This document shows, one piece after another, positions 3,927 through 37,754 of a stretch of DNA of 53,366 nt. The DNA comes from a virus (Duplodnaviria; Caudoviricetes). A program made the translations under genes and the position numbers. Each line of letters opens with the position of its first letter. The stretch's first letter is position 1. The stretch covers positions 1-53,366 of the IMG/VR virus record IMGVR_UViG_3300005611_000037; one strand, 5' to 3'. The notes under the pieces were generated by a model, which was not told the DNA's origin, ran no database searches, and saw only the letters and a program-made list of their open reading frames with translations.

Positions 3927-4364
3927 CTAGGCGATAGTTATGATAGCGTTGGCACCTGCTGTTGGGAATACTATTGTAAAGTCTCCAGCGGTAGATGTTT
4001 TCGATCCACCAAAGCTGATTGTTGCTACTGATTTATCTGCATCAGTATCGTTATAAATAAGACAACCACTTGCTGTAATAGTTGCGGTTGAAAATGTTAA
4101 ATCAACAAAGTCAACAAATGCTGTTGTACCTGTTGCTCCAGGCGCTGCAATAGCTGGTACTAAAGTACCGCCACCTGCTGTATAGCCTGTACCTACTACT
4201 TGTCCTGCAAGACCTGTAGAGTAAGCCGTTGTTGTTGCGTCTAGAGAGGCGGTTGCACCTGCATATAGGGCCAATTTAAAAGAATCGCCACCTGAAGCAA
4301 AATTATGCACGCCTTGCAATAGTTCTTTTTTAAAACTTGTTGTTAATGCGGATGAAATCGCCAT
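3927..4364 (-). CDS. putative tail structural protein
   Basis: 145 aa beta-rich ORF (FKLALY, GYTAGG, GDFTIVFP) typical of tail-module proteins. Confidence 0.6.
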   Translation of the reverse strand: MAISSALTTSFKKELLQGVHNFASGGDSFKLALYAGATASLDATTTAYSTGLAGQVVGTGYTAGGGTLVPAIAAPGATGTTAFVDFVDLTFSTATITASGCLIYNDTDADKSVATISFGGSKTSTAGDFTIVFPTAGANAIITIA

Positions 4365-4652
4365 TTATAGTCTCCTAATTATATTTGCTAGTTCTTCTTC
4401 ACCACCTTTCATTAATTGTTGAATGATTGTGGTTTTATATGATTTTATAGCATTATTAATGTAAATCAAAGCGACTTGGTAAATTAAATCACGATAGGCT
4501 TCGGCTTGTTCTCTTATGTGTGGCTCCTGTTCTTCTGAAACAGATACAATTTTTTTAACCATTTGATCAGCCCAAAACTCTGGTGGGTGTCCACCAAAAT
4601 TTGTTGTAGCTACTTCAACAACGCCTAATTTCGGTAATCCTTCTTGTTTCAA
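4365..4652 (-). CDS. hypothetical protein
   Basis: ORF coupled to both neighbours. Confidence 0.6.
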   Translation of the reverse strand: MKQEGLPKLGVVEVATTNFGGHPPEFWADQMVKKIVSVSEEQEPHIREQAEAYRDLIYQVALIYINNAIKSYKTTIIQQLMKGGEEELANIIRRL

Positions 4653-5389
4653 TATTTTTTGGGTTCAACAGGACCTTTTAAATGTGAATCGTATCGATCA
4701 AGATAACCGGTCTGTTTTTGGGTTTCAGCTAGATATTTAACGTCACTTACTTTTCTAGTAACTAAGTTTCCTTTACTATCATGCCCTACTACTAATGGAT
4801 CGTCTAAACGATGATAACCATATAGCTTATCTTCCGATGGTATATCGGCATCTAATAGACTAGATCTTTGTGCAACGTCCACTTGAATACCAGCTTCAAT
4901 GCATTTACACAACCAAAACTCAACGCAACCACGTCCAGCTTCAGCAAAGCCTACATTTGATTTATAAGTAAAATCAACTCCAAACAATGATACTTTTTTT
5001 ACTTTATTCCAATAAGCAAAAGCAACTGCATAAGCCACAGTATTATTTAGATAGTATGATTTAGTATCTTTTAAAACTTCGTTGATCGGATATTCAACCA
5101 AACCTGGACATCTATCATCTAACTCACAAGTATAGATTGGACCTTGATGTTCTTTTAAAACTTTTCTCAAAGTATTGGTTTGACCACCAGCATCTTCAGA
5201 ATCTAAAAATCTAGATGCAGGATCCATCATGAATACACGATCGTGGAATATTACATTACATACTGAGTTGATTGCCCAAACTTCATCAAATTCAACTCCA
5301 TGGGTTTTTGCGATATTAAAGTCTTGCCAACTATTGCCTAAACCAACAATAGCAACCGACTTATTTAAAAGCTCTTTTAAAGGTTTCAC
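4649..5389 (-). CDS. putative nucleotide-sugar-utilising enzyme (MptE/MAF/sialyltransferase-like fold)
   Basis: Rossmann-like AIVGLGNS, VWAINS, NTVAYAVAFA and LFGVDF motifs. Confidence 0.5.
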   Translation of the reverse strand: MKPLKELLNKSVAIVGLGNSWQDFNIAKTHGVEFDEVWAINSVCNVIFHDRVFMMDPASRFLDSEDAGGQTNTLRKVLKEHQGPIYTCELDDRCPGLVEYPINEVLKDTKSYYLNNTVAYAVAFAYWNKVKKVSLFGVDFTYKSNVGFAEAGRGCVEFWLCKCIEAGIQVDVAQRSSLLDADIPSEDKLYGYHRLDDPLVVGHDSKGNLVTRKVSDVKYLAETQKQTGYLDRYDSHLKGPVEPKKY

Positions 5390-17610: not shown

Positions 17611-17735
17611 TATTTTTTAACTCTAATTTTTCTAACACGAACTTTTTTAAGTTTGGATTTAAGTCTTGGTTTTTTAACACGCAATCTTGGCGACTTAGAA
17701 ATTTGTTTTGCCATGGAAGATCTCCTAATGGCCAT
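17610..17735 (-). CDS. 41-aa extremely basic peptide (MAIRRSSMAKQISKSPRLRVKK...)
   Basis: Manual translation; TAATG coupling at both ends; GAGG RBS. Confidence 0.6.
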   Translation of the reverse strand: MAIRRSSMAKQISKSPRLRVKKPRLKSKLKKVRVRKIRVKK

Positions 17736-20197
17736 TACTTACCTCGATAAAAGTCAAGGGCTTTGAAACTTTGTGATTGTTCCAAACGATCGCGAGCGAT
17801 GTCGTCTTTCATTTCAGCAATGTCTCTTTGTAGGTTTAAACGTTCTTGTGCCAATTGTCCAGATTGCATTAACTTCATAGCATCGAACTCTTGTCTTTGT
17901 ACAAACTCTTCACGTTTTCTTTGGACATCATCGGCTTTAATGTCAAGCTCTTTATCACGCAACTCGACCAATGGGTCTGGGGCTGGTGGTGGTGGCATAA
18001 AGATCTGATTGATCTGTGCCATTAATTGTGAAGCTGTTTGAGCTACGCTTTTTGCTACCGATTCTTTTAACTGCTCTTGATATTGTTGTGCTTGTTCTGG
18101 TGGCAAAGATTGGAGCTGTTGCGTAAATGCTTGGAACTCTGGATCTTGAGAATTTTGTTGATCCACAATTTCTGCCGCTCTAAAAGAAATGTGCTGATAA
18201 ATATGTGCTTGAATGAGCGACAGAACTTGTGGATTGTTTTGTGCTGTTATGGTGTTGTACAAAGATAAGTGCGTCTGAATGTGCGCATCGTGATCTTGGT
18301 TAGCAAAAGCTTGAGCAGGTACTCCCGAAATCAAACTAGCATTTTCACTTGCTGGATCGATTGGTTGAGGGGGTTGAGGGGGTGGGAGCAACTGCTCAAT
18401 ATTTTGTACTCCCATGGCTGCATACATTCTACGATATGCCTCATACATACCATTAGGGCCATGGATTTGTGGGTTTGATTGTACTGTTTTCAACATTTCT
18501 TGTGCCAACATAACTCTTTGTGACATAGAGAAAACGTTAGGGTCTGATACTGGCAAGACATCAATACGCTCATCAAAGTCCATAGCTTTGATGGCTTGAT
18601 TGCCATTGGCTGTCATGTATGGGTATTCTGGTGGTAGATACTCACCAAATACTTTGGACAACAAATTAAATTCTATTTTTTGACTGGCATGCAATCTTTT
18701 ATGAATGGAACTCATAACTCTGGTACCACGCTCAAGTAAAGCTACTGTAGTACCTACAGGGGCATTTTGGTTGGCATCGCCAACTTGCATATCTGTAATA
18801 GATGCGAAACGCCTACCACTATCTACCAAGATTCCCAAAAGAGAGAGGAGAGTTTGAGAAGGCTCCTTGAAAGGCAATGGCACAAAGGCGTCTCGCAGAC
18901 TGCCACCTGGAGCGTCCATGTCTCTGAACTCTCCTGGTTGTAATGGTTGGTCATCATTACGTATGCGAATGCCACGCGCCTTAAAGCCAGCAGGCAAATT
19001 CGATAAAGTTCCAGCGTCTATTAGCTGTCTTAAAATAGAAGTTGAAGCTTTGGATAACCCACCGATCATGTGTGTTAAGCCGAAGCCATAAAATCCTAAA
19101 CCTGGTAAAAATTTGTATTGAACAAAGTAATTGATTTTTTGTTTTAAAACATCTTCTGGTTTGTAGTTTCTTCTGATTGATAAAATCTCATCGTTGGTTC
19201 TTGATATGGTAACGATGTAAGGCAATTTAATACCTGTTTCTTCCCCATTGGGATCGCGGTCTTCAAAACCTGGGAGATCTAATTCAGTATGTACTTCATA
19301 AATTTCACACCTATCATCTTCACGATAGCTAGGCTCAATGCCTTGTAGTTCATCAATCTCTTCTTGTACTTGATCGTAATCTTCTGGACTGTAACCGCCA
19401 GACATATCGATCATTTTGTAAAACCCTATTTGCTGTAATTTTTTGACATCGTTCTTTGACATGTCAATAACGTGCGTCACTCTAGTAGCGTTATACAGAT
19501 CGGTTGCTGAATAAGGCACAATGAGATCTTCACTAGGAATAAATTTAGAAACAGCACGTCCTAAGTTTTGGTCGTAATAAACTTTACGGAAAGCAGAACC
19601 TGAGAGGGGTAAATAAAACAAGAGTTGGTCTGTTTCAGGCTCATACTCTTTCATAATGTGCATGAGTTGATAGTTCATAAACTCTTGCACTCTTGTTGCT
19701 TGTTGATCAATTTCTGGATTGCTTTGTCCTAATACTTGAGTTTTAACTGGACCTTGCGATGGTAGCAATTCATTGTAAGCTTGGGATTGAAACTGAGTAA
19801 CCGATTCAGCTAGTAAAGGGTGCATAACACCAGAAGCACCTTCAAATGGTTGGGTGCGTTCTTCGTACTTCATACCAAGATATTCCAAACCATTGCGATA
19901 GGTTTGTTCCCATTCTTCTCTTGATGCTTTGTCGGCTTCAACGCCATCGAGAATGTCAAGCTTGACTTTACTGAGGTCAGTATCGTCCATGACTTCAGCT
20001 AGGTTGGCATAAAAGTCAATGTTTTCTGGGGGTGGTAAAGCGCCACCAAATACTAAAGTACCATCGTCTAGTTGTTGAAACTCAGAAATGTCTTGGATCT
20101 CTTCTTCAGGAACCTCAACTTCCATAGCTTTGTTACGATCACGAACTTCTAGTTCGGCTTGTTCATCAACACTAATTACTTTATCTATGTCTGCCAT
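17735..20197 (-). CDS. portal protein
   Basis: 820 aa; HPLLAESVTQFQ, GSAFRKVYYD, YGFGL.H.IG, APVGTTVALLE; located between terL and the scaffold. Confidence 0.9.
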   Translation of the reverse strand: MADIDKVISVDEQAELEVRDRNKAMEVEVPEEEIQDISEFQQLDDGTLVFGGALPPPENIDFYANLAEVMDDTDLSKVKLDILDGVEADKASREEWEQTYRNGLEYLGMKYEERTQPFEGASGVMHPLLAESVTQFQSQAYNELLPSQGPVKTQVLGQSNPEIDQQATRVQEFMNYQLMHIMKEYEPETDQLLFYLPLSGSAFRKVYYDQNLGRAVSKFIPSEDLIVPYSATDLYNATRVTHVIDMSKNDVKKLQQIGFYKMIDMSGGYSPEDYDQVQEEIDELQGIEPSYREDDRCEIYEVHTELDLPGFEDRDPNGEETGIKLPYIVTISRTNDEILSIRRNYKPEDVLKQKINYFVQYKFLPGLGFYGFGLTHMIGGLSKASTSILRQLIDAGTLSNLPAGFKARGIRIRNDDQPLQPGEFRDMDAPGGSLRDAFVPLPFKEPSQTLLSLLGILVDSGRRFASITDMQVGDANQNAPVGTTVALLERGTRVMSSIHKRLHASQKIEFNLLSKVFGEYLPPEYPYMTANGNQAIKAMDFDERIDVLPVSDPNVFSMSQRVMLAQEMLKTVQSNPQIHGPNGMYEAYRRMYAAMGVQNIEQLLPPPQPPQPIDPASENASLISGVPAQAFANQDHDAHIQTHLSLYNTITAQNNPQVLSLIQAHIYQHISFRAAEIVDQQNSQDPEFQAFTQQLQSLPPEQAQQYQEQLKESVAKSVAQTASQLMAQINQIFMPPPPAPDPLVELRDKELDIKADDVQRKREEFVQRQEFDAMKLMQSGQLAQERLNLQRDIAEMKDDIARDRLEQSQSFKALDFYRGK

Positions 20198-20550
20198 TAT
20201 TTTATCTCTCTACCAAAACCTCTTTTTGCTACGCCTGAAGATTTTCTTCTTACTATACCACCTTTTTTAATTCCATACTTCTCTCTGAGTGATTTAATTA
20301 ATCCAGGTCTAGGACCACGAGGTGATGGATTAGGAGAAAAAACTTCTTTTTCTACGCCTGCTTTTTTAGCTTCTTGTTTTATTTGTGATATTTCTTGATC
20401 GGCTTTGTTTATTTTGTTTTGTCCTGCTTTGCTATCTGCTGGATAATTACTTTCATCGCCAACTTTTTTTTCAGATTCTCCTCTTTGTTTTTTGTTTTGT
20501 GCTTTTTTAAGTCTTGCTTTTAAAAACTTAACAACCCCTTTGGCAGCCAT
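20197..20550 (-). CDS. small basic protein, paralogue 3 (ends KKGGIV...SSGVAKRGFGREIK)
   Basis: TAATG-coupled; shared C-terminal motif. Confidence 0.75.
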   Translation of the reverse strand: MAAKGVVKFLKARLKKAQNKKQRGESEKKVGDESNYPADSKAGQNKINKADQEISQIKQEAKKAGVEKEVFSPNPSPRGPRPGLIKSLREKYGIKKGGIVRRKSSGVAKRGFGREIK

Positions 20551-20834
20551 TACTTTATTTCTTTTCCGAAACCTTTAAGCGCTACGCCAGAAGATTTTGA
20601 TTTTGAAGAGACAACTCCGCCACTTTTCATTTCTTGCACTTTGCTTCCTCCAATACCTACTCCTAATGAACCTGCAAGAGCGGGTGAAACATTTTTAATT
20701 TTCTCAATGTTTTTCATAGTTCTAAGCTTCATTTCAGCATTACGTCTTTTTTCTGGCCGACTAAATGGATCCATTGATTTAGCTCTAAGCTTAAGTTTCT
20801 TAAGACCTTCTTTGATTGCTTTTCCCATTGCCAT
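20550..20834 (-). CDS. small basic protein, paralogue 2 (ends KSGGVV...SSGVALKGFGKEIK)
   Basis: TAATG-coupled; shared C-terminal motif. Confidence 0.75.
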   Translation of the reverse strand: MAMGKAIKEGLKKLKLRAKSMDPFSRPEKRRNAEMKLRTMKNIEKIKNVSPALAGSLGVGIGGSKVQEMKSGGVVSSKSKSSGVALKGFGKEIK

Positions 20835-21385
20835 TATTTTATTTCCTTACCATAACCTCTGAGTGCTACACCAGAGGATCTTCTTTTGACTGGTTTTCTA
20901 ACACTAGATTTAACCATACCACCTCTTTTCATTTTTTTAGGGCCAGGTAATCTTTTACTAACGTAATCTTCTTTTGTTTTTCTTATGCTTTTTTTAACTT
21001 CTGATTCGTAAAGTTTTTCTAAGTTGCTATCTTTTGGTGTAATGCCTCTTTTTTTAAGGTAATCAACTTTGCCTTGTCGAATGCTTTTCTTTGCTTCTGA
21101 TTCAAAAATTTTATCCAACTCTTTGTCGGATAATTTTTTTAGAGGAGTTTTATTTTTTAAAGCTGGTTTAACTACTTTGTTTACATAATTTTTAGTAAAG
21201 GATTGCAACTCTTGTCTTTCCATTCCTTTCTTAATATCTTTCTTGACTGCTTTATCAAACTTTTCAAAATCAATTTCATTTTGTATTTGCTGTGATTTAG
21301 CCGATGGGTTTAATTTCTCGCCAACAACGCCTTCTTTTTTCTTTTTACCCTTAAGAACGCCCTTGATTAATTTTGTAATTGCCAT
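20834..21385 (-). CDS. small basic protein, paralogue 1 (ends KRGGMV...SSGVALRGYGKEIK)
   Basis: TAATG-coupled; shared C-terminal motif. Confidence 0.75.
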   Translation of the reverse strand: MAITKLIKGVLKGKKKKEGVVGEKLNPSAKSQQIQNEIDFEKFDKAVKKDIKKGMERQELQSFTKNYVNKVVKPALKNKTPLKKLSDKELDKIFESEAKKSIRQGKVDYLKKRGITPKDSNLEKLYESEVKKSIRKTKEDYVSKRLPGPKKMKRGGMVKSSVRKPVKRRSSGVALRGYGKEIK

Positions 21386-22851: not shown

Positions 22852-23446
22852 TGGTAATACTTAAAATGTATGCACTCACTTGGCGCGGTTCGTTTAATTT
22901 TATCTCGATAAGTTCTGGTTGACAAAACCCATTTAAATACTGCTCAAGTCGCCAAAAGGTTTTGCGCCCTGGGTCAGCCAGCATAATCTCAGCAACACCT
23001 GCCTTGAGTGCTTGCTTGATGAACTTGACCAAGCCGTCTAGTTGTTCGTCCCAAAAACAAACATCAGCGCCCACAATCCAATCGATGTGCGCGAGGTCGC
23101 CAAGGTCAAGGCGCGTGAGATCTGTGATGCGCAACATGCCTTGAGTGTTGTTTAGCTCTCTGATGAGTTCATAGTAGAGGGCAACGTTGGGGTCGTAGTC
23201 GACCGACTGCACATGGGCGCCTTTACGCGCGAGCATGCTTGAGACCACGCCCCAGCCACAGCCGATTTCCATGATCTCGTGGTCGGTGACATCGTAGTCG
23301 GACAAGTAGTCCATCAGTGCCAGTGATGCGTTCCATACCTTGTTGCCGTGGGCTTGGTATGAAATTTTTTTGTTTTTAATGTTTCTTACCATGCCATGGG
23401 CGCTAGTTGGAATCACGATGTCGTGAAAAGTAAAACTCTGCCTCAT
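22838..23446 (-). CDS. SAM-dependent methyltransferase, Methyltransf_16-like (putative protein-lysine MTase)
   Basis: GNKVWNASLALMDYL, IMEIGCGWG, IVGADVCF, LADPGR. Confidence 0.8.
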   Translation of the reverse strand: MRQSFTFHDIVIPTSAHGMVRNIKNKKISYQAHGNKVWNASLALMDYLSDYDVTDHEIMEIGCGWGVVSSMLARKGAHVQSVDYDPNVALYYELIRELNNTQGMLRITDLTRLDLGDLAHIDWIVGADVCFWDEQLDGLVKFIKQALKAGVAEIMLADPGRKTFWRLEQYLNGFCQPELIEIKLNEPRQVSAYILSITNDEA

Positions 23447-23667
23447 TGTGTATATAGTATCTGAATAGGGGTCCCAAAGCTATTTTTTTGCTGATTGTAT
23501 GTATTGATTGTTATATATATATACTAAAATTTTTGCACACCGCCTAGCATTGGGGGGTCGCCATTTTTAAAAAAAAGTTCTAGAAAATTTGGGTTGCAAT
23601 TCCATAGAGACCCATAAAAAAAAGTAGTGTTTATTTTTATAAAACTATACAAATTGTCTATTTAATT

Positions 23668-23676
23668 TGGTAAAAT
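23668..23676 (+). promoter_or_regulatory. extended -10 promoter of the first early unit
   Basis: TGG-TAAAAT in AT-rich DNA about 40 nt upstream of ATG 23718. Confidence 0.45.
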
Positions 23677-23717
23677 AACTGTAAGTTATTTAGGTAAATA
23701 ACTACGGAGAAAATAAA

Positions 23718-24065
23718 ATGAAAGATATAAGTCTTTTAAAATCGTTGAGAGAAATGAAAAATTCTCTTGAAAGTAATACCAAGGTACAAAAATACCTTGA
23801 GGTAATGTCTCAGCTTTCAGCCTGTGAAAGTAGAATAAAGAATGAGATCAAAGACAATTTGATTGTTAAAGATGATCGGTTCGGGTTTCGTAGCGGGTGG
23901 CACAATTGGACCAAATCTAAATCTAGAATTAAACCAATAATTACTGATGGCACTAGAATTAATGGCTCAATTGGCAATAGTGGGCAACTGCTTCACTATA
24001 CTGTCAGCCACCGCAAAGGCTATGAAGTAAAACCTACGGCAACAATTAAATTGGAGATGTTCTAA
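23718..24065 (+). CDS. hypothetical early protein
   Basis: GGAGAAAATAAA-ATG RBS; 115 aa. Confidence 0.75.
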   Translation: MKDISLLKSLREMKNSLESNTKVQKYLEVMSQLSACESRIKNEIKDNLIVKDDRFGFRSGWHNWTKSKSRIKPIITDGTRINGSIGNSGQLLHYTVSHRKGYEVKPTATIKLEMF

Positions 24066-24397
24066 TGGAAAGATTACCAAATGATTTAATGCCCAACTTT
24101 GCTGACCGAGAGGTCAGCAAGGAACAGGCAGCCGAGGAGCTCTATCAAGCTTTGTGCAAAATTGCTGAAGCTAATGGCCACGATCCAAAATGGGAAGTCT
24201 CAATAATGAAAGATCATAATAAATATGAAGAGATTAATGAGGGTGACATTTGGGTGACTTATGAAGCGGGGCCGTGGGAATGGGGCGTTGGCTATTCTTT
24301 AGGCTCACACCCTGAAAGTTATACTTGGCCTACAACTAAGCAAGATTGGTATCTTGAGACCTATTATGGATTTGATGTCATCTTTACAGACATCTAA
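24065..24397 (+). CDS. hypothetical acidic early protein
   Basis: TAATG coupling; aromatic/acidic (YEAGPWEWG). Confidence 0.75.
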   Translation: MERLPNDLMPNFADREVSKEQAAEELYQALCKIAEANGHDPKWEVSIMKDHNKYEEINEGDIWVTYEAGPWEWGVGYSLGSHPESYTWPTTKQDWYLETYYGFDVIFTDI

Positions 24398-24432
24398 CAG
24401 GAGCCTGGGGCAGCAATGCCCCAGGATTTATT

Positions 24433-24618
24433 ATGGTAATGAAAATAAATAAGAAAAAATTTGATCAATGCTTTGGCCAAAGAATAACCGAGTGTTTTAA
24501 ATGCGAGTCAAAAAACATTGGGTTTCTAGGTGGCGTTGCAGTCAAAGACAATGAAGCTGAACTATTCCTTTATTGTTCAGGCCATTGGTGTTTGGATTGT
24601 GACACTGAGCTAGATTAA
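24433..24618 (+). CDS. small zinc-ribbon protein
   Basis: CFKCES...CLDC. Confidence 0.6.
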   Translation: MVMKINKKKFDQCFGQRITECFKCESKNIGFLGGVAVKDNEAELFLYCSGHWCLDCDTELD

Positions 24619-24668
24619 ATTTGGAGATCTCCAACAAGATCCAGATCGGGCTGGAGATCTCCACCAAG

Positions 24669-24693
24669 ACCAGGCGAAAGCCTGGTTTTTTTT
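24669..24693 (+). terminator. intrinsic terminator
   Basis: CCAGGC-GAAA-GCCTGG followed by T8. Confidence 0.9.
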
Positions 24694-24781
24694 ACGCCAT
24701 CGCTCGCAAATTATATTCAAGCTCGCAAAAAAAATTTATGTTCAAGCTCGCAAAAAGTTTAACGCCATAGCTCGCAAAAAA
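24691..24781 (+). repeat. array of four GCTCGCAAA direct repeats
   Basis: TTTACGCCATCGCTCGCAAA, TTCAAGCTCGCAAAA (twice), TTAACGCCATAGCTCGCAAAA. Confidence 0.85.
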
Positions 24782-24844
24782 TAAAACCCCTGGAATCGCA
24801 ATACTTGGAGCTGACAAACAAACAAAGATAGATAAATTTAGTTG

Positions 24845-24873
24845 TTGACAAATTGTATATAATAAAAGAAAAT
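24845..24873 (+). promoter_or_regulatory. probable promoter of the second early unit
   Basis: Perfect TTGACA; only a weak -10 (GAAAAT) at 17 nt. Confidence 0.4.
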
Positions 24874-24920
24874 AAAGTATTGATGGTAATTAAGCCATCA
24901 TGTAATTGGAGAAAATTATT

Positions 24921-25313
24921 ATGGGTAATCGAGCCGTAATAGCAATCGAGAAAGAGGGAGTGCCTAAAGAGTACAGCCCTGCAATATATGTTCATTGGAA
25001 TGGTGGACGCGATAGCATCGAAGCATTCCTTGAAGCAGCCAAAAGAATGGGCGTCAGACTAAATGAAGACGACTATTTTTTAGCACGACTAACGCAATTA
25101 ATCACTAATTTCTTTGGTGGCACTTTGTCTGTAGGTGTTGGCAATTATTGTTCACTTGACACCAACAACTACGATAATGGTGTTTATTGGCTGAAGAATG
25201 GCGAGATAGTTGGTAGAGAATTTGCCCCCGAAGAAGAACAAACGGGGCATGATTTCGAGGAGATGGTTGAGGAAATTCTCAACAGAACAAACACCGAAGG
25301 GGCATTAGCCTAA
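24921..25313 (+). CDS. conserved hypothetical early phage protein
   Basis: ATG 24921 follows GGAGAAAATTATT; MGNRAVI...IYVHWNGG..S...FL...DNGVY. Confidence 0.8.
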   Translation: MGNRAVIAIEKEGVPKEYSPAIYVHWNGGRDSIEAFLEAAKRMGVRLNEDDYFLARLTQLITNFFGGTLSVGVGNYCSLDTNNYDNGVYWLKNGEIVGREFAPEEEQTGHDFEEMVEEILNRTNTEGALA

Positions 25314-25349
25314 CAGGGGGTGGGGCGTAGCAATGCGCCCCTTTTGATT

Positions 25350-25715
25350 ATGGAATTACTAACTATTGATAACGCTAGGGATCTCTTGAAGAAGGGAGAA
25401 ACTTATCGCATTGGGGCTAACGAACTAAACTGTTTAGAGTTTGCCTACGAACACAAAGGGTTTAAAACAAAAAACCCGCACTATGAAAAGCTACCATCAT
25501 TTTTAAATGATGCTGAAACTTTGTATTTAGATGGGACAATTAATTGGTTGGATGTTGACATGGAAGAACAGAAAACCGATTACAGATTCCACGCTATAAG
25601 AAAACCACCTAGTGAAAAGTTGGACAATAAATTTATGCATGGGGTATTCTGTGCTTGGAATGGTGAGCCACTTTGGTTGCTAGATGATTACGAAACTACA
25701 AAGGATATAGTTTAA
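25350..25715 (+). CDS. hypothetical early protein
   Basis: ATG 25350 preferred because the track start lies inside a hairpin. Confidence 0.65.
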   Translation: MELLTIDNARDLLKKGETYRIGANELNCLEFAYEHKGFKTKNPHYEKLPSFLNDAETLYLDGTINWLDVDMEEQKTDYRFHAIRKPPSEKLDNKFMHGVFCAWNGEPLWLLDDYETTKDIV

Positions 25716-25722
25716 CCAGGAT

Positions 25723-25748
25723 CCCCAGGGGAAACCCTGGGGTTTTTT
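25723..25748 (+). terminator. intrinsic terminator
   Basis: CCCCAGGG-GAAA-CCCTGGGG followed by T6. Confidence 0.9.
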
Positions 25749-25766
25749 ATTCACGCCATAAGTCGA

Positions 25767-25795
25767 TTGCGTCAGAACGCAAATGCGTGTATGAT
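25767..25795 (+). promoter_or_regulatory. sigma70-type promoter for the candidate sRNA
   Basis: TTGCGT-17 nt-TATGAT. Confidence 0.65.
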
Positions 25796-25800
25796 CGCAA

Positions 25801-25871
25801 ATATCACTTTCATATTATTTTCTCCAAGGTGTGAATATGAGTAGGGGAGATCGCAAGATCTCCCTTTTTTT
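25801..25871 (+). ncRNA. candidate ~70 nt anti-RBS small RNA
   Basis: Bounded by a promoter and a terminator, no plausible ORF, contains CTTTCATATTATTTTCTCCAA (antisense to an SD plus AUG). Confidence 0.6.
25845..25871 (+). terminator. intrinsic terminator of the candidate sRNA
   Basis: GGGAGATC-GCAA-GATCTCCC followed by T7. Confidence 0.9.
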
Positions 25872-25959
25872 ATGCCCAAGGTCGCAGAAAGATCCAGATC
25901 GGTTGGTCTAGGACTTCCCCGTCAGACGGCAACTTCCCCTAGGATTTCCCTGCACGCAC

Positions 25960-26019
25960 AAGCTCGCACCAATTTTTTACGCCCCAGCCCGCAAATTTTT
26001 ACGCCCCCGCCCGCAGAAA
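25960..26019 (+). repeat. 22-bp tandem repeat related to the 24.7 kb array
   Basis: TTTTTACGCCCCAGCCCGCAAA / TTTTTACGCCCCCGCCCGCAGA, preceded by AAGCTCGCA. Confidence 0.8.
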
Positions 26020-26134
26020 CTTGATCGGTTGCAAAAGTTTTTGCTTTTCGGGGGAAAGAGGGGGGGAATGAGATTAATTACACCTTTTTGTTTTTTATTT
26101 TTATTTTCAATTATTTTTGTGATTTGTAATATGT

Positions 26135-26164
26135 TTGTAAAATAATATACTTTCGGTATATAAT
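26135..26164 (+). promoter_or_regulatory. sigma70-type promoter of the third early unit
   Basis: TTGTAA-18 nt-TATAAT with an AT-rich upstream element. Confidence 0.6.
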
Positions 26165-26196
26165 ACTTATATGTATTTAATTAAGGAGTTAATAAT

Positions 26197-26769
26197 ATGA
26201 ATATAGAACTATCTACCAAAGAGATTGGTTTAATCCTAGATCAATTTGACGAAGACCGAATACCAAAACAAGTTTTAGTTTTGGGTAAGTGTGATTATGG
26301 TAAGCAAGACATTACCATTAGAACGCAAGAGCAAGATTTCTATGACCTGCAAAATAAGTTGACAGAAGCACAAGTTAATCAGATGGCAAAAGATTTAACT
26401 TTGGGTGAGTGCAACAACGACAGTTATGGGAATTGCGATTGCAAAGTATTACCAAAAAATCTTGGTGGTCATAATGATCTAGTAAGAAAAACTTTCAAAT
26501 TGGAAGGACTAGAAGAAACCTTTGATGGCTATCTTGATCTAGCCAATCCATCTTGGAATGGTTGGGCGTTACCTTTATTTCCTAAAAGCGAACGAGATGA
26601 ATTTCTCAAAGCACAAATGATGTATGTTAGCGAAAATTTATGCTCAGAAAATATGGAACTTCTTGAAGACATTATGACAATTAAAGCAAAAACATTTCAA
26701 GACCAAAGATTGTACGACTTGGGTTGTGGTTTGTGTTGGTCAATAGTTGAAGATGAGGGGGAAGAATGA
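26197..26769 (+). CDS. hypothetical early protein
   Basis: AAGGAG RBS; C-terminal WNGWALPLF...GLCW domain. Confidence 0.75.
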   Translation: MNIELSTKEIGLILDQFDEDRIPKQVLVLGKCDYGKQDITIRTQEQDFYDLQNKLTEAQVNQMAKDLTLGECNNDSYGNCDCKVLPKNLGGHNDLVRKTFKLEGLEETFDGYLDLANPSWNGWALPLFPKSERDEFLKAQMMYVSENLCSENMELLEDIMTIKAKTFQDQRLYDLGCGLCWSIVEDEGEE

Positions 26770-27236
26770 GCGATAGTAAAAAAATAGTTTTACCAACTAC
26801 AAAATGGGTTGAACTCTACGCAAGACTTTCGGAATATGTTTTAGAGTATTCATCACTTGACCCAATCTACAATGATGATGGAACTAAAACAGAAGAAAAA
26901 CAAGACGAGTTTTGCGACATTGTAGATGATGTAGAAAACATTTTAAGAATGTTTTTTATCAAAGCAGACGAAACAAACTCATCAAATGATGAAGTAAAAA
27001 CATTTACTTCTAATTCTTGGACAACTTTTGATAGAACTGAAATTTGCTTAGAAGGTATACGATACACCACAACAGAATCTTATTGGTGTCGTGTTGTCGA
27101 AGAAGACTTACCAAAATTAAAAAGCATTTTAGGTAACAGACTTTATGAATGGGCATTAGATGGTGGAAGCCATGTTGAAATCCCAGAAGATGAAGTTTGG
27201 CATCGTCTTCCAAATAATTGGAAGATGAAAACGTAA
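26766..27236 (+). CDS. hypothetical acidic early protein
   Basis: ATGA overlap; GAGGGG RBS. Confidence 0.7.
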   Translation: MSDSKKIVLPTTKWVELYARLSEYVLEYSSLDPIYNDDGTKTEEKQDEFCDIVDDVENILRMFFIKADETNSSNDEVKTFTSNSWTTFDRTEICLEGIRYTTTESYWCRVVEEDLPKLKSILGNRLYEWALDGGSHVEIPEDEVWHRLPNNWKMKT

Positions 27237-27245
27237 GGGGGTTGT

Positions 27246-27473
27246 ATGGGAACTTACAACAGAATGTACTTTGCTTTCCAAGAGAGGAAAGATTACGAGG
27301 AAAAAACCAAGGCTTTCGACTTGGCTTTTGAACAAGGATTTGAATCCGAACAGGAACTTGAATCCAATTACCAAAAGTTTCACAAAGAGCTTTTGGGTTA
27401 CGAAGCTGATGGGGGAGAAATTACTTTCCTATTGAACGACCTAGATTTGTGTGCGTATGATTACGGACACTGA
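27246..27473 (+). CDS. hypothetical acidic protein
   Basis: AGGGGG RBS. Confidence 0.65.
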   Translation: MGTYNRMYFAFQERKDYEEKTKAFDLAFEQGFESEQELESNYQKFHKELLGYEADGGEITFLLNDLDLCAYDYGH

Positions 27474-27562
27474 AACTATGGTTTGGATTATCAATCAATT
27501 GTCCGAGGGGAAAATATCCCCTCAGACTTTTGAACTTTTAACAGGAATTAATACTAAGGAGA

Positions 27563-27877
27563 GTGCCAATGGCAACAAAAAAAGATCTGGATCTATTCAG
27601 AAAAATCAGAAACGAAAATAGATCTTTGCAAAAACAAGTAAAAGAGTTAGAGGGTGAGGGCGCAAGTACCAATCCAATGGCTCGCAAATACGAAGTAACA
27701 GTAGAACACACAGGAAGTTGGGTATCTACTTATGTTGTTTCGGCTTCAACAGAATCAGAAGCTGAAGCAAATTGGGAAGAAGGCAGACTAAAAGAGAACT
27801 ATGCTCACATTGTTGATACGAGTGAAGTTTCTCTATTAGATGTTGTTGAATACAATCCACAAGACTACATCAGCTAA
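27563..27877 (+). CDS. hypothetical protein
   Basis: AAGGAG RBS; start at 27563 or 27569. Confidence 0.6.
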   Translation: MPMATKKDLDLFRKIRNENRSLQKQVKELEGEGASTNPMARKYEVTVEHTGSWVSTYVVSASTESEAEANWEEGRLKENYAHIVDTSEVSLLDVVEYNPQDYIS

Positions 27878-27904
27878 TGTTATTTGAAAGCAAGGAGGTA
27901 ACTA

Positions 27905-28078
27905 ATGAGCATTAAAAAAGTAGAAATAAAATTAGTTGTAGATGTTGATACAACTGATGATTTTATTTGTCCTAGTGGTAATCCCTTAGAACATAACGTT
28001 GTATTAAATACGATAGAAAGTGATTATTTTCTAGAGCCAGTAAGTGTTTTAGAAATTAAGGAAGTAACTAGAAATTGA
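27905..28078 (+). CDS. 57-aa hypothetical protein not in the ORF track (MSIKKVEIKLVVDVD...)
   Basis: Perfect AAGGAGGT RBS; manual translation. Confidence 0.7.
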   Translation: MSIKKVEIKLVVDVDTTDDFICPSGNPLEHNVVLNTIESDYFLEPVSVLEIKEVTRN

Positions 28079-28079
28079 T

Positions 28080-28226
28080 ATGACAATTAACATAATGATC
28101 GCAGTAGCTGTTATAGCTTTCATAACAATCTCTACCCTCTTATGCGTTGTTTTGTTTTTAATCAACGATTCAGTATTGAAATGGCAAAAGAAAAAAATCA
28201 AGGAGATAAACAATGACCAAATTTAA
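28080..28226 (+). CDS. 48-aa single-pass membrane protein not in the ORF track
   Basis: MTINIMIAVAVIAFITISTLLCVVLFLIND followed by a basic tail; AAGGAAG upstream. Confidence 0.6.
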   Translation: MTINIMIAVAVIAFITISTLLCVVLFLINDSVLKWQKKKIKEINNDQI

Positions 28227-28416
28227 ACAAGCTATACGTTATTTCCACGAAGAAAGATTTGATTACGATCCAGCCCAAACTGTTCTTAAAAACTTTAAAG
28301 CATGGTTAACGCCTATGCGTTATGAACGCGAGTACAATGGCGACAAACCAATTACAGATCGGGAAGCTTGGGAAGGTTTTAAAATCAGATACAAAGATGA
28401 AATACAAAGTAGATAA
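28213..28416 (+). CDS. hypothetical protein
   Basis: AAGGAG RBS. Confidence 0.7.
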   Translation: MTKFKQAIRYFHEERFDYDPAQTVLKNFKAWLTPMRYEREYNGDKPITDREAWEGFKIRYKDEIQSR

Positions 28417-28615
28417 ATACATTCCTATGCCAAGGTTTCATTCACCATTTGTTGAAGCTCTCTACAAGCTCAATGTTGGTGAGAGCATAGGCAATCTCAC
28501 ACGCAAGCAAGTCTACAAGCACAGACAAAACTTCTACCGCCCAGACTTTGCCCCGCGTAAGTTTCGTTTCCGCCAAGAAGACAATCGCAGATGGAGAATT
28601 TGGCGCGTTGAATAA
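28397..28615 (+). CDS. small basic putative DNA-binding protein
   Basis: MKYKVDK.IPMP...LNVGES...RIWRVE pattern; start refined to ATG 28397. Confidence 0.7.
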   Translation: MKYKVDKYIPMPRFHSPFVEALYKLNVGESIGNLTRKQVYKHRQNFYRPDFAPRKFRFRQEDNRRWRIWRVE

Positions 28616-28629
28616 TTCTGTGCTACTAT
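28600..28629 (+). promoter_or_regulatory. promoter giving a probable leaderless xseB mRNA
   Basis: TTGGCG-18 nt-TACTAT with TG extension, 6 nt before the ATG; no SD. Confidence 0.5.
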
Positions 28630-28635
28630 CTCGAC

Positions 28636-28833
28636 ATGAGTTTCGAGAGAGGACTATCAGAACTAGAAAATATTGTTGACCAATTGGAAAGCAACTCGAC
28701 AAGTCTAGAAGATGCCATGCAACTATTTGAGAAAGGTACAAAGATCATTAACTTCTGTAACAACGAACTAACCAAAGCAGAAGCCAAGCTCCAAGAACTT
28801 ACTCAGGATCTTCCCCAACAACAGAATCGTTAA
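28636..28833 (+). CDS. xseB: exodeoxyribonuclease VII small subunit
   Basis: SFE.GLSELE.IV..LE.....LEDAM.LFEKG..I...C...L.KAE.KL matches the XseB consensus over its full length. Confidence 0.92.
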   Translation: MSFERGLSELENIVDQLESNSTSLEDAMQLFEKGTKIINFCNNELTKAEAKLQELTQDLPQQQNR

Positions 28834-37403: not shown

Positions 37404-37550
37404 GGAACTGTGGCTTATTACATGAGTAGTTGCCAGTACGCTCATGCTCCTTATCCACTCAGAAGTTTTGGTGTGGGCCACAGAGGGTTTTTAAAGTTTT
37501 TATTCCCTTTCATAACGCATTAAAACATACTGGCATTTTGGAGAAATACT

Positions 37551-37754
37551 ATGTTTAAAAGTGAACTAGAAAACGATTTAAAAAATATGATGCAATCTAC
37601 AACAGATTTGATAAGGGAGATTCATCATACTTATTCAGATGTACCTTCTGGATTAAACAAAAAGATAGAAGCTACTAAAGCTTTGTTATTGAATGTAAAC
37701 TATGATTATGAAACTAAAAAAATCCAAAGGTTCTTATCTAAAATCCTTGGATGA
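37551..37754 (+). CDS. hypothetical protein
   Basis: GGAG RBS. Confidence 0.6.
   Translation: MFKSELENDLKNMMQSTTDLIREIHHTYSDVPSGLNKKIEATKALLLNVNYDYETKKIQRFLSKILG

Follow-up and report, generated by a model that had tools for sequence, protein, structure and literature searches.

A conserved non-coding unit between early operons of a tailed phage: a candidate small RNA gene complementary to early ribosome-binding sites

Does the short interval between the second and third early operons of a tailed-phage genome encode a small RNA (sRNA), and which messages would such an RNA address? The genome is IMG/VR record IMGVR_UViG_3300005611_000037 (linear, 53,366 bp, 97% complete), analysed over its whole length and referred to below as the window; the interval is the plus-strand unit at 25767–25871, in which about 45 non-coding bases separate a promoter from a terminator. 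A sequence-only reading of this DNA had proposed that the unit yields a self-contained, trans-acting sRNA antisense to the ribosome-binding sites (RBSs) of the lead genes of three early operons and of gene 37551. Comparison with related loci supports the view that the promoter-seed-terminator unit is a conserved plus-strand RNA gene. We propose with moderate confidence, from sequence evidence, that its product (25802–25871, plus strand) acts in trans on ribosome-binding sites and shuts off translation of the phage's own early lead genes and of 37551. The earlier proposal stands in part: the conserved RNA gene, the display of its seed in a loop and the identity of its best sites (the early lead RBSs and 37551) are borne out, and the replication of this pattern in relatives is partial.

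Genes of the window are directed leftwards up to 23446, rightwards from 23718 to 28615, and leftwards again thereafter. The rightward block consists of small open reading frames (ORFs), and its position alone leads us to take it as the early region. With a lead gene defined by an upstream gap of more than 120 nt or by a divergent neighbor, this block has three: 23718, 24921 and 26197. The sRNA unit lies between the second and third operons. A terminator at 25723–25748 (plus strand; stem 25723–25742 with eight pairs, seven of them G-C, followed by T6) closes the second operon (genes 24921–25715) and separates the unit from upstream transcription. It is followed by a sigma-70-like promoter at 25767–25795 (plus strand), composed of TTGCGT (25767–25772), a 17-nt spacer and TATGAT (25790–25795), and by the predicted sRNA of about 70 nt at 25802–25871, its 5′ end placed by the −10 box and its 3′ end by the T run. 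The sRNA terminator (25843–25871, plus strand; stem 25843–25866 with ten pairs and a 4-nt loop, T run to 25871) is among the four best of 14 terminators that a scan found in 12 kb. Re-reading of the sequence confirmed all three elements described earlier, namely the upstream terminator, TTGCGT-17-TATGAT and the second strong terminator. The RBS-complementary stretch, 25801–25827 (plus strand), has the reverse complement TTGGAGAAAATAATATGAAAGTGATAT, which spans a Shine-Dalgarno sequence through AUG and the first codons; its core, UUUUCUCCAA, is a copy of the ribosome's anti-Shine-Dalgarno core.

Is this arrangement conserved? With the neighboring gene 25350–25715 as bait (the marker gene), we collected six, then 29 metagenome loci and eight viral loci, referred to below by L numbers. 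The module is found in 22 of these 37 loci (some rows being the same contig twice), in 14 distinct sequence variants, and its conservation is one among uncultured marine phages. The sequence-only reading had made its case depend on conservation of the layout in relatives. The order promoter, seed, terminator is indeed kept, even in L022, L024, L025, L007 and L015, where the unit as a whole faces the other way with respect to the marker gene. A TAnnnT (−10) box precedes the first hairpin by 6–7 nt in 16 of the 16 loci used (14 unique RNAs); the −35 hexamers vary by clade yet look promoter-like (TTGCAA, TTTACA, TTTACT, TTGCTC, TTGGTA). Terminator hairpins within the window's clade have unrelated sequences and nevertheless retain a stem followed by T6–T9 in all eight variants. 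The only core invariant over all clades is UUCUCC(A/U)AA.

Fifteen loci have no module: ten of them end at or shortly after the marker gene or break inside the module (L026). The other five (L016, L018–L021) possess a different hairpin with UUCUCC or CCUCC in its loop region, GGCGGTT...TTGGTTCTCCTATATTAAACTGAAAAACCGCC (CCTCC in L020), located some 650–700 nt after the marker gene and followed in L018 by a hairpin and T7. This element could represent a fourth version of the RNA, perhaps with stems interleaved in the manner of a pseudoknot. A pattern scan of IMG/VR revealed five further contigs of the L005/L007 type among its nine matches. A looser pattern matched at least 118 stretches; among the matches listed, five are true modules, of the L028/L024 types, and the non-modules are mostly ordinary antisense ribosome-binding sites.

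Very close relatives add weak support for constraint, their very closeness limiting what identity can tell: L010, 98% identical to the window, agrees with it in 29/29 promoter, 72/72 RNA and 245/275 following intergenic columns, and contigs of two public runs have no listed difference within 25736–25906. The contigs of these runs carry an 18-nt insertion at 25907, just past the sRNA terminator, and L010 has a similar one. A search of public sequencing runs for 23500–28700 found none recorded as RNA, and the assembled contigs that it did find show DNA-like variants.

Searches beyond these metagenomic relatives revealed no kin of the unit. The window encodes tailed-phage proteins (portal, terminase, tail-spike, primase/polymerase, helicase, Cas4-like exonuclease and two DNA methyltransferases), and its large terminase shares 59–62% identity with those of Pelagibacter phages HTVC027P and HTVC023P over 99–100% of the length. 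A nucleotide search of 24800–26800 against 50,697 phage records gave zero matches, a comparison of the marker protein with phage records found no homologue in cultured phages, and the module was not detected when 19-kb pieces of HTVC027P and HTVC023P were scanned crudely for motif plus terminator. The Rfam comparison suggested with the original proposal was run on 23000–28000 and identified no family at threshold; its eight matches have E-values of 1.6–8.9, all far below the gathering threshold, and the match to BTnc231 over 25831–25875 (18.7 bits against a gathering score of 80.4) covers the terminator alone.

Which strand is the functional one? The minus strand carries a perfect GGAG-8 nt-ATG followed by a 13-codon ORF (MKVIFAIIHAFAF, 25772–25813), features absent from the sequence-only reading; an ordinary minus-strand gene start is therefore the first rival to exclude. 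We judge this ORF to be no gene. It extends over 13 codons in the window and over about 50 in L003, 65 in L033 and 2 in L024, the peptides are unrelated, and no ATG is present in L025 or in any of the six variants of the L005/L007 clade. More broadly, ORFs on either strand of the unit are not conserved in relatives. A minus-strand gene or type I toxin was rejected on the ground of this lack of ORF conservation. Within the window's clade the plus strand folds better than its complement in all eight variants, by 2.6–7.0 kcal/mol, the window sRNA showing the difference of 7.0 kcal/mol.

An attenuator or leader of the third operon was likewise considered for this locus and rejected: between the terminator and 26197 there are 320 nt, in which a better promoter, TTGTAA-18-TATAAT (10/12), sits at 26135–26164.

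How would the RNA present its complementary stretch? The region 25796–25875 folds at −23.4 kcal/mol (z = −3.65), a stability reached by 0 of 200 shuffles. In this fold UUUUCUCCAA falls in a loop, and the anti-Shine-Dalgarno CUCC (25822–25825, plus strand) is unpaired with a probability of 0.91–1.0. The seed hairpin (25809–25835, plus strand; stem UUCAUAUU/GGUGUGAA, 11-nt loop AUUUUCUCCAA) occupies the 5′ half of the RNA and is weak, being rich in U/A and G.U pairs. Loop display of CUCC had been predicted correctly, on a TCATATT/AATATGA stem that is not the minimum-energy one; the latter is UUCAUAUU/GGUGUGAA, and both stems leave CUCC unpaired.

For folding, each RNA was taken to start at the seventh base downstream of the −10 box and to end with the T run. 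All 14 distinct sequences leave CUCC unpaired in an apical hairpin loop (probability 0.72–1.0). Twelve variants form three hairpins; in the window and L003 the first two fuse into a single hairpin with a larger loop. Seed stems change on both sides with pairing kept (AGUUUU/AAAACU, GGGUUU/AAACCU, GGUUUU/AAAACC, GUUUUU/AAAAAC and, in the L005/L007 clade, ACUUUA/UAAAGU), and the third hairpin of the L005/L007 clade has four pairs with compensatory changes among its six sequences. The seed-stem changes are read from single-sequence folds, since MAFFT alignments misplace the loop and the terminators.

Which sites in the window would the RNA pair with? Energies of the 5′ part of the RNA were computed with RNAduplex against each of the window's 77 ribosome-binding sites (mean −12.7, standard deviation 4.1) and in a genome-wide scan of 17,776 windows on both strands. 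The RBS strings originally quoted for 23718, 24921, 26197 and 37551 were found as given, and all four sites are candidate targets on the plus strand. The RBS of the first early gene, 23718–24065 (site 23704–23730; exact 11-nt run GGAGAAAATAA), scores −24.0 or −23.7, ranking 2 of 77 and third of the 17,776 windows. That of the third operon's lead gene, 26197–26769 (site 26185–26201; exact 11-nt run AATAATATGAA), scores −21.5, rank 3 or 4 of 77 and eighth genome-wide, and that of the second operon's lead gene, 24921–25313 (site 24906–24923; exact 11-nt run TTGGAGAAAAT), scores −19.2, rank 5 of 77. By the terms of the sequence-only reading, the proposal would fall if the three early sites did no better than other RBSs of the phage; they rank 2, 3 and 5 of 77. 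The best single complementary site lies outside the early block, in the leader of 37551–37754, lead gene of the block with the helicase and the Cas4-like exonuclease (site 37525–37564): with −30.4 it ranks 1 of 77 and is the best of the 17,776 windows, its exact run being just 9 nt. The match at 37551 runs out of frame into codons 3–5 (AAAGTGA), which RNA pairing explains more readily than a common coding ancestry would.

Complementarity that is exact over 11 nt occurs only three times in the whole window on both strands, at the 23718, 24921 and 26197 sites. Energies are lower for the 11 lead genes than for the remaining 66 genes (p = 0.0145). Shuffled controls, which had been suggested as a check, were run with RNAduplex, and the matches exceed chance. 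The summed energy of the three early lead sites is −64.7, as compared to −34.9 ± 5.1 for dinucleotide shuffles (0/300 reach it). When the UUUCUCC core is fixed and the flanks are shuffled, the values are −64.4 and −42.8 ± 5.5 (0/1000 reach it), which shows that the match extends past the anti-Shine-Dalgarno core.

Do seeds follow the sites of their own clade? Besides the loci, the comparison took in a pair of longer records, G001 (54,835 bp, 98% complete) and G002 (38,562 bp). G001 was ranked by its own seed hairpin alone (seed CUUCUCCUAAAGU), the whole 45-nt 5′ part being dominated by a G+C-rich first hairpin; ranks 1, 4, 5 and 6 of 78 go to the four lead genes around its early region. A 10-nt run, ACTTTAGGAG, is present in G001 at sites 16175 and 15346, as is TTTAGGAGAA at site 17751. 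The adjacent lead gene of G002 is first of 59, and second place falls to another lead gene. All three lead genes are near the top in L003 (ranks 2, 3 and 4, setting aside an antisense ORF that overlaps the sRNA itself) and in L011 (ranks 1, 2 and 4, third place being held by an internal gene); a lineage-specific AAACT spacer is common to sRNA and lead sites in both. The top real match of L030 is the first early gene (TGGAGAAAACTAATTATG versus the reverse-complemented sRNA, TGGAGAAAAACTAATCTATG). For L022, L024 and L025 it is the marker gene, a lead gene in these loci, and the number of A's after GGAG agrees between sRNA and site in L022 and L024; for L173 and L177 the top match is again a lead gene. 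A matrix of own versus swapped seeds displays clear blocks between clades. These results support the conclusion that, at clade level, seed flanks in the DNA track each clade's own lead-gene sites. Concerning the genes themselves, the 23718 protein is 43% identical to its L003 counterpart, and homology further afield is not established (22% for L030, 15–17% for G001 and L007).

A mechanism consistent with these features can be outlined. The loop would first contact the GGAG Shine-Dalgarno sequence of the early lead mRNAs (23718, 24921, 26197) and of 37551. Pairing of the U-rich 5′ arm would then extend through the A-rich spacer and the AUG, and the extended duplex would occlude the 30S subunit and turn translation off. 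The stability of target transcripts would probably also be lowered as the RNA accumulates. A weak promoter together with a stable terminator hairpin could let the RNA build up and end the early phase. The sequence itself shows a conserved, structured and strand-specific unit with fitting complementarity. That the RNA is transcribed, where it begins, that it pairs in the cell, that its effect is repression and when it acts are points that we infer from the DNA letters.

Several results weigh against such a repressor. The sRNA promoter is weak: it agrees with the consensus at 8 of 12 positions and so fell below the 9/12 threshold of the promoter scan, in which it does not appear. In the scan of 17,776 windows the 24921 site falls outside the top 12, and scores of −21 to −24 are found for several windows within coding regions; the 77 genes themselves come from a crude home-made gene caller. 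The caveat attached to the original proposal, that RBSs of one genome resemble each other, proves real: of the pseudo-sRNAs made as reverse complements of real sites, 9/77 pair with their four best partners at least as well. The sRNA complement is, as far as its letters go, a good copy of the genome's ribosome-binding-site style, and what is unusual is that an RBS-like sequence stands antisense inside a conserved non-coding unit. Among the relatives, none of the six L005/L007-clade variants has a U tract after the third hairpin, and the fold difference between strands there is +0.8 to −1.2, without asymmetry, which makes strand and 3′ end less secure in that clade. When all 15 lead genes of G001 are taken together the difference is not significant (p = 0.198), and no lead site of G001 is in the top 12 of its genome-wide scan. 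L174 and L106 contigs show no lead-gene target, and the top matches of L028 and L005 are weak or internal. Within the 23718 family, own seeds have just a small advantage over swapped ones (−21.6 against −19.5). Covariation of seed and target, proposed earlier as a check, is clear between clades and slight within this family, and fine-scale seed/site covariation is not established.

How do other explanations fare on the same evidence? The RNA may be real and directed elsewhere, to host mRNAs or to mRNAs of superinfecting related phages with GGAG and an A-rich spacer; its role would be host shut-off or exclusion, and the match to its own lead genes a side effect of a shared RBS style. The invariant UUCUCC(A/U)AA would suit any GGAGAA-type Shine-Dalgarno sequence, the sRNA complement is generically site-like (the 9/77 above), and c4 RNA of phages P1 and P7 is described as underlying heteroimmunity between relatives (PMC12197685). 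We regard host or superinfection targets as unlikely: the seed flanks follow each clade's own lead-gene sites, and no other exact match in the window is as long as those at the three early lead sites of the phage itself. Silencing of a competing phage, offered in the sequence-only reading as an alternative, is not borne out for phages of other clades, as foreign-clade seeds show no enrichment on lead sites (p = 0.12–0.66).

Quite unlikely, in our view, is a real RNA without a base-pairing role, in which the CUCC-loop hairpin would be a protein-binding or decoy element, for instance for an RNA-binding protein of phage or host, a nuclease or a defense sensor. The L028–L025 types, with a 4–5-nt loop closed by a U-A stem, would fit this idea, as would hairpins 1 and 2 of the L005/L007 clade, which are sequence-invariant and do not covary, as a sequence-specific protein site would look. 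Such a site would not account for complementarity that reaches far past the loop (11-nt exact runs; 17–20-nt near-matches through the AUG) and shifts with the clade's own sites; nor was a candidate binder identified, the ten early proteins encoded near the sRNA having no informative family.

A DNA- or transcription-level element appears improbable. The unit would then be a back-up terminator or part of a CGCAAA-repeat regulatory or replication-origin region, its site-like sequence being functionless. It does lie inside plus-strand YCGCARA clusters, the repeats also flank it in relatives, and its promoter is weak. Selection on one RNA strand is suggested, in contrast, by the G.U pairs and the strand asymmetry of folding; the stem changes are compensatory, the −10 box keeps a fixed distance in all variants, and UUCUCC is strictly conserved while terminator sequences drift. 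Finally, a minus-strand gene start, whether real or a relic (a mini-ORF or a degraded gene that has an RBS of its own), with the plus-strand promoter and terminator coincidental, is very improbable: beside the GGAG-8 nt-ATG and 13 codons it has two promoter-like minus-strand sites (26141–26113 and 26219–26192, 9/12 each) in its favor, and against it stand an ORF conserved neither in length nor in sequence, the poorer minus-strand fold in 8/8 variants of the window's clade and U-tract terminators located on the plus strand.

The surroundings of the unit contain further recurring motifs. Clusters of plus-strand (G/A)CTCGCAAA / ATCGCAAAT-type motifs occupy both inter-operon gaps (24704–24778 and 25795–26017). 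YCGCARA is present in eight plus-strand copies within 1.3 kb (24704–26017), the genome-wide count being 31 against 28 expected, without enrichment; TCGCAAA at 25795–25801 is the first of four plus-strand copies in the 25795–26017 cluster. Repeats of the CGCAAA type overlap the −35 and +1 regions of the sRNA and flank it in relatives too (L003 4660–4900, L005 1200–1500, and L007 4650–4730 on the opposite strand). They may be sites for a phage regulator, or iterons. A G-rich box, GAGAGGGGGGAAGT(C/G)A(T/G)ATTAA, is conserved in three clades 100–170 nt upstream of the third early operon (window 26053–26080; L003 ~5010–5035; L005 ~1505–1530; L006 ~4730–4755) and includes no conserved ORF, the 38-codon window ORF 26029–26145 not being kept in relatives. 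Palindromes GGAGATCTCC at 24623 and 24653 recur once more within the sRNA terminator stem (regions 24620–24690 and 25845–25900), and a 13-mer, AGATCCAGATCGG, is common to both inter-operon gaps (24637 and 25890).

Two internal early genes, 24433 and 25350, lack a Shine-Dalgarno sequence; each is preceded by a G+C-rich hairpin (24404–24432 and 25322–25352) followed directly by (T)TTTATTATG or TTTTGATTATG. The terminator scan scores these hairpins as terminators, and the same layout is seen in L003 at ~2545–2578, 3985–4015 and 4405–4436. They may be a processing site or a coupling signal. Elsewhere in the window, at 17735–20860 on the minus strand, three successive genes (starts 20197, 20550 and 20834) share a near-identical 30-nt upstream sequence, GAGGTTNTGGTANRGANATAAAATAATGGC, which gives the preceding proteins the same short C-terminal peptide; these upstream sequences show the strongest site-to-site resemblances of the genome.

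What would the proposed RNA mean beyond this genome? More tentatively than for the window itself, and rather short of an expectation, we speculate that marine phages akin to the abundant HTVC023P-type pelagiphages, as a widespread group, use a dedicated sRNA as a class-wide translational off-switch, for which the early leader and RBS serve as the address, co-evolving with it by clade. Given clade-specific seeds, this RNA could in addition mark out groups of co-infecting relatives that exclude one another. If the proposal is true, it would provide a simple mechanism for the early-to-middle switch in an ecologically dominant, genetically intractable phage group, a new RNA family absent from Rfam, and a compact natural anti-ribosome-site design in which specificity comes from some 10–20 nt beside an invariant CUCC loop. 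To our knowledge, temperate coliphages and prophages are the main source of the phage RNAs known to act by base pairing. Our literature search, with supplements outside its scope, found no description of a self-contained sRNA of a lytic-type marine phage addressing its own early start sites, and the main text of two pelagiphage papers has no words for non-coding RNA, sRNA, intergenic, promoter or terminator.

Among known systems, RsaE/RoxS and RNAIII of Firmicutes combine several hairpins with pyrimidine-rich anti-Shine-Dalgarno sequences in apical loops and have many targets; they are chromosomal, with the motif UCCC. The window sRNA differs from them in being phage-encoded and without an Rfam match, and its flanks mirror the phage's own early sites. 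Phage P22 sar and lambda OOP are likewise short RNAs, each expressed from a promoter and ended by a terminator of its own, and they pair with a phage mRNA; they are transcribed opposite their target and hence are perfectly complementary to it. In contrast, no gene is opposite the window sRNA, and its candidate targets, which it matches imperfectly, are found at distances of 0.3–12 kb.

Of the systems described so far, the nearest is the c4 antisense RNA of the P1/P7 immI region, likewise a phage small RNA not encoded opposite its target. Its complementary stretches, believed to be situated in loops, bind around the RBS and block translation (PMC12197685, PMC8198154). The c4 RNA has one target, downstream in its own operon (icd/ant), and a role in maintaining the immunity of a temperate phage, whereas the predicted sRNA of the window has its own promoter and terminator and matches lead genes of several operons, in a phage whose terminase relatives are lytic pelagiphages. 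No sequence or structure homology to the c4 family was found at the Rfam threshold in 23000–28000.

Control of a whole class of early messages is otherwise familiar from phage T4, where RegA is a translational repressor. The T4 endoribonuclease RegB cuts in the middle of GGAG and thereby inactivates early mRNAs (PMC1702504). The likeness, a class-wide post-transcriptional shut-off of early mRNAs addressed by their GGAG Shine-Dalgarno sequence, is one of function and goes no further: both T4 effectors are proteins, and the effector proposed here would be an RNA that pairs with GGAG and its flanks. A class-wide off-switch of this kind, if true, would be the RNA counterpart of T4 RegB and RegA.

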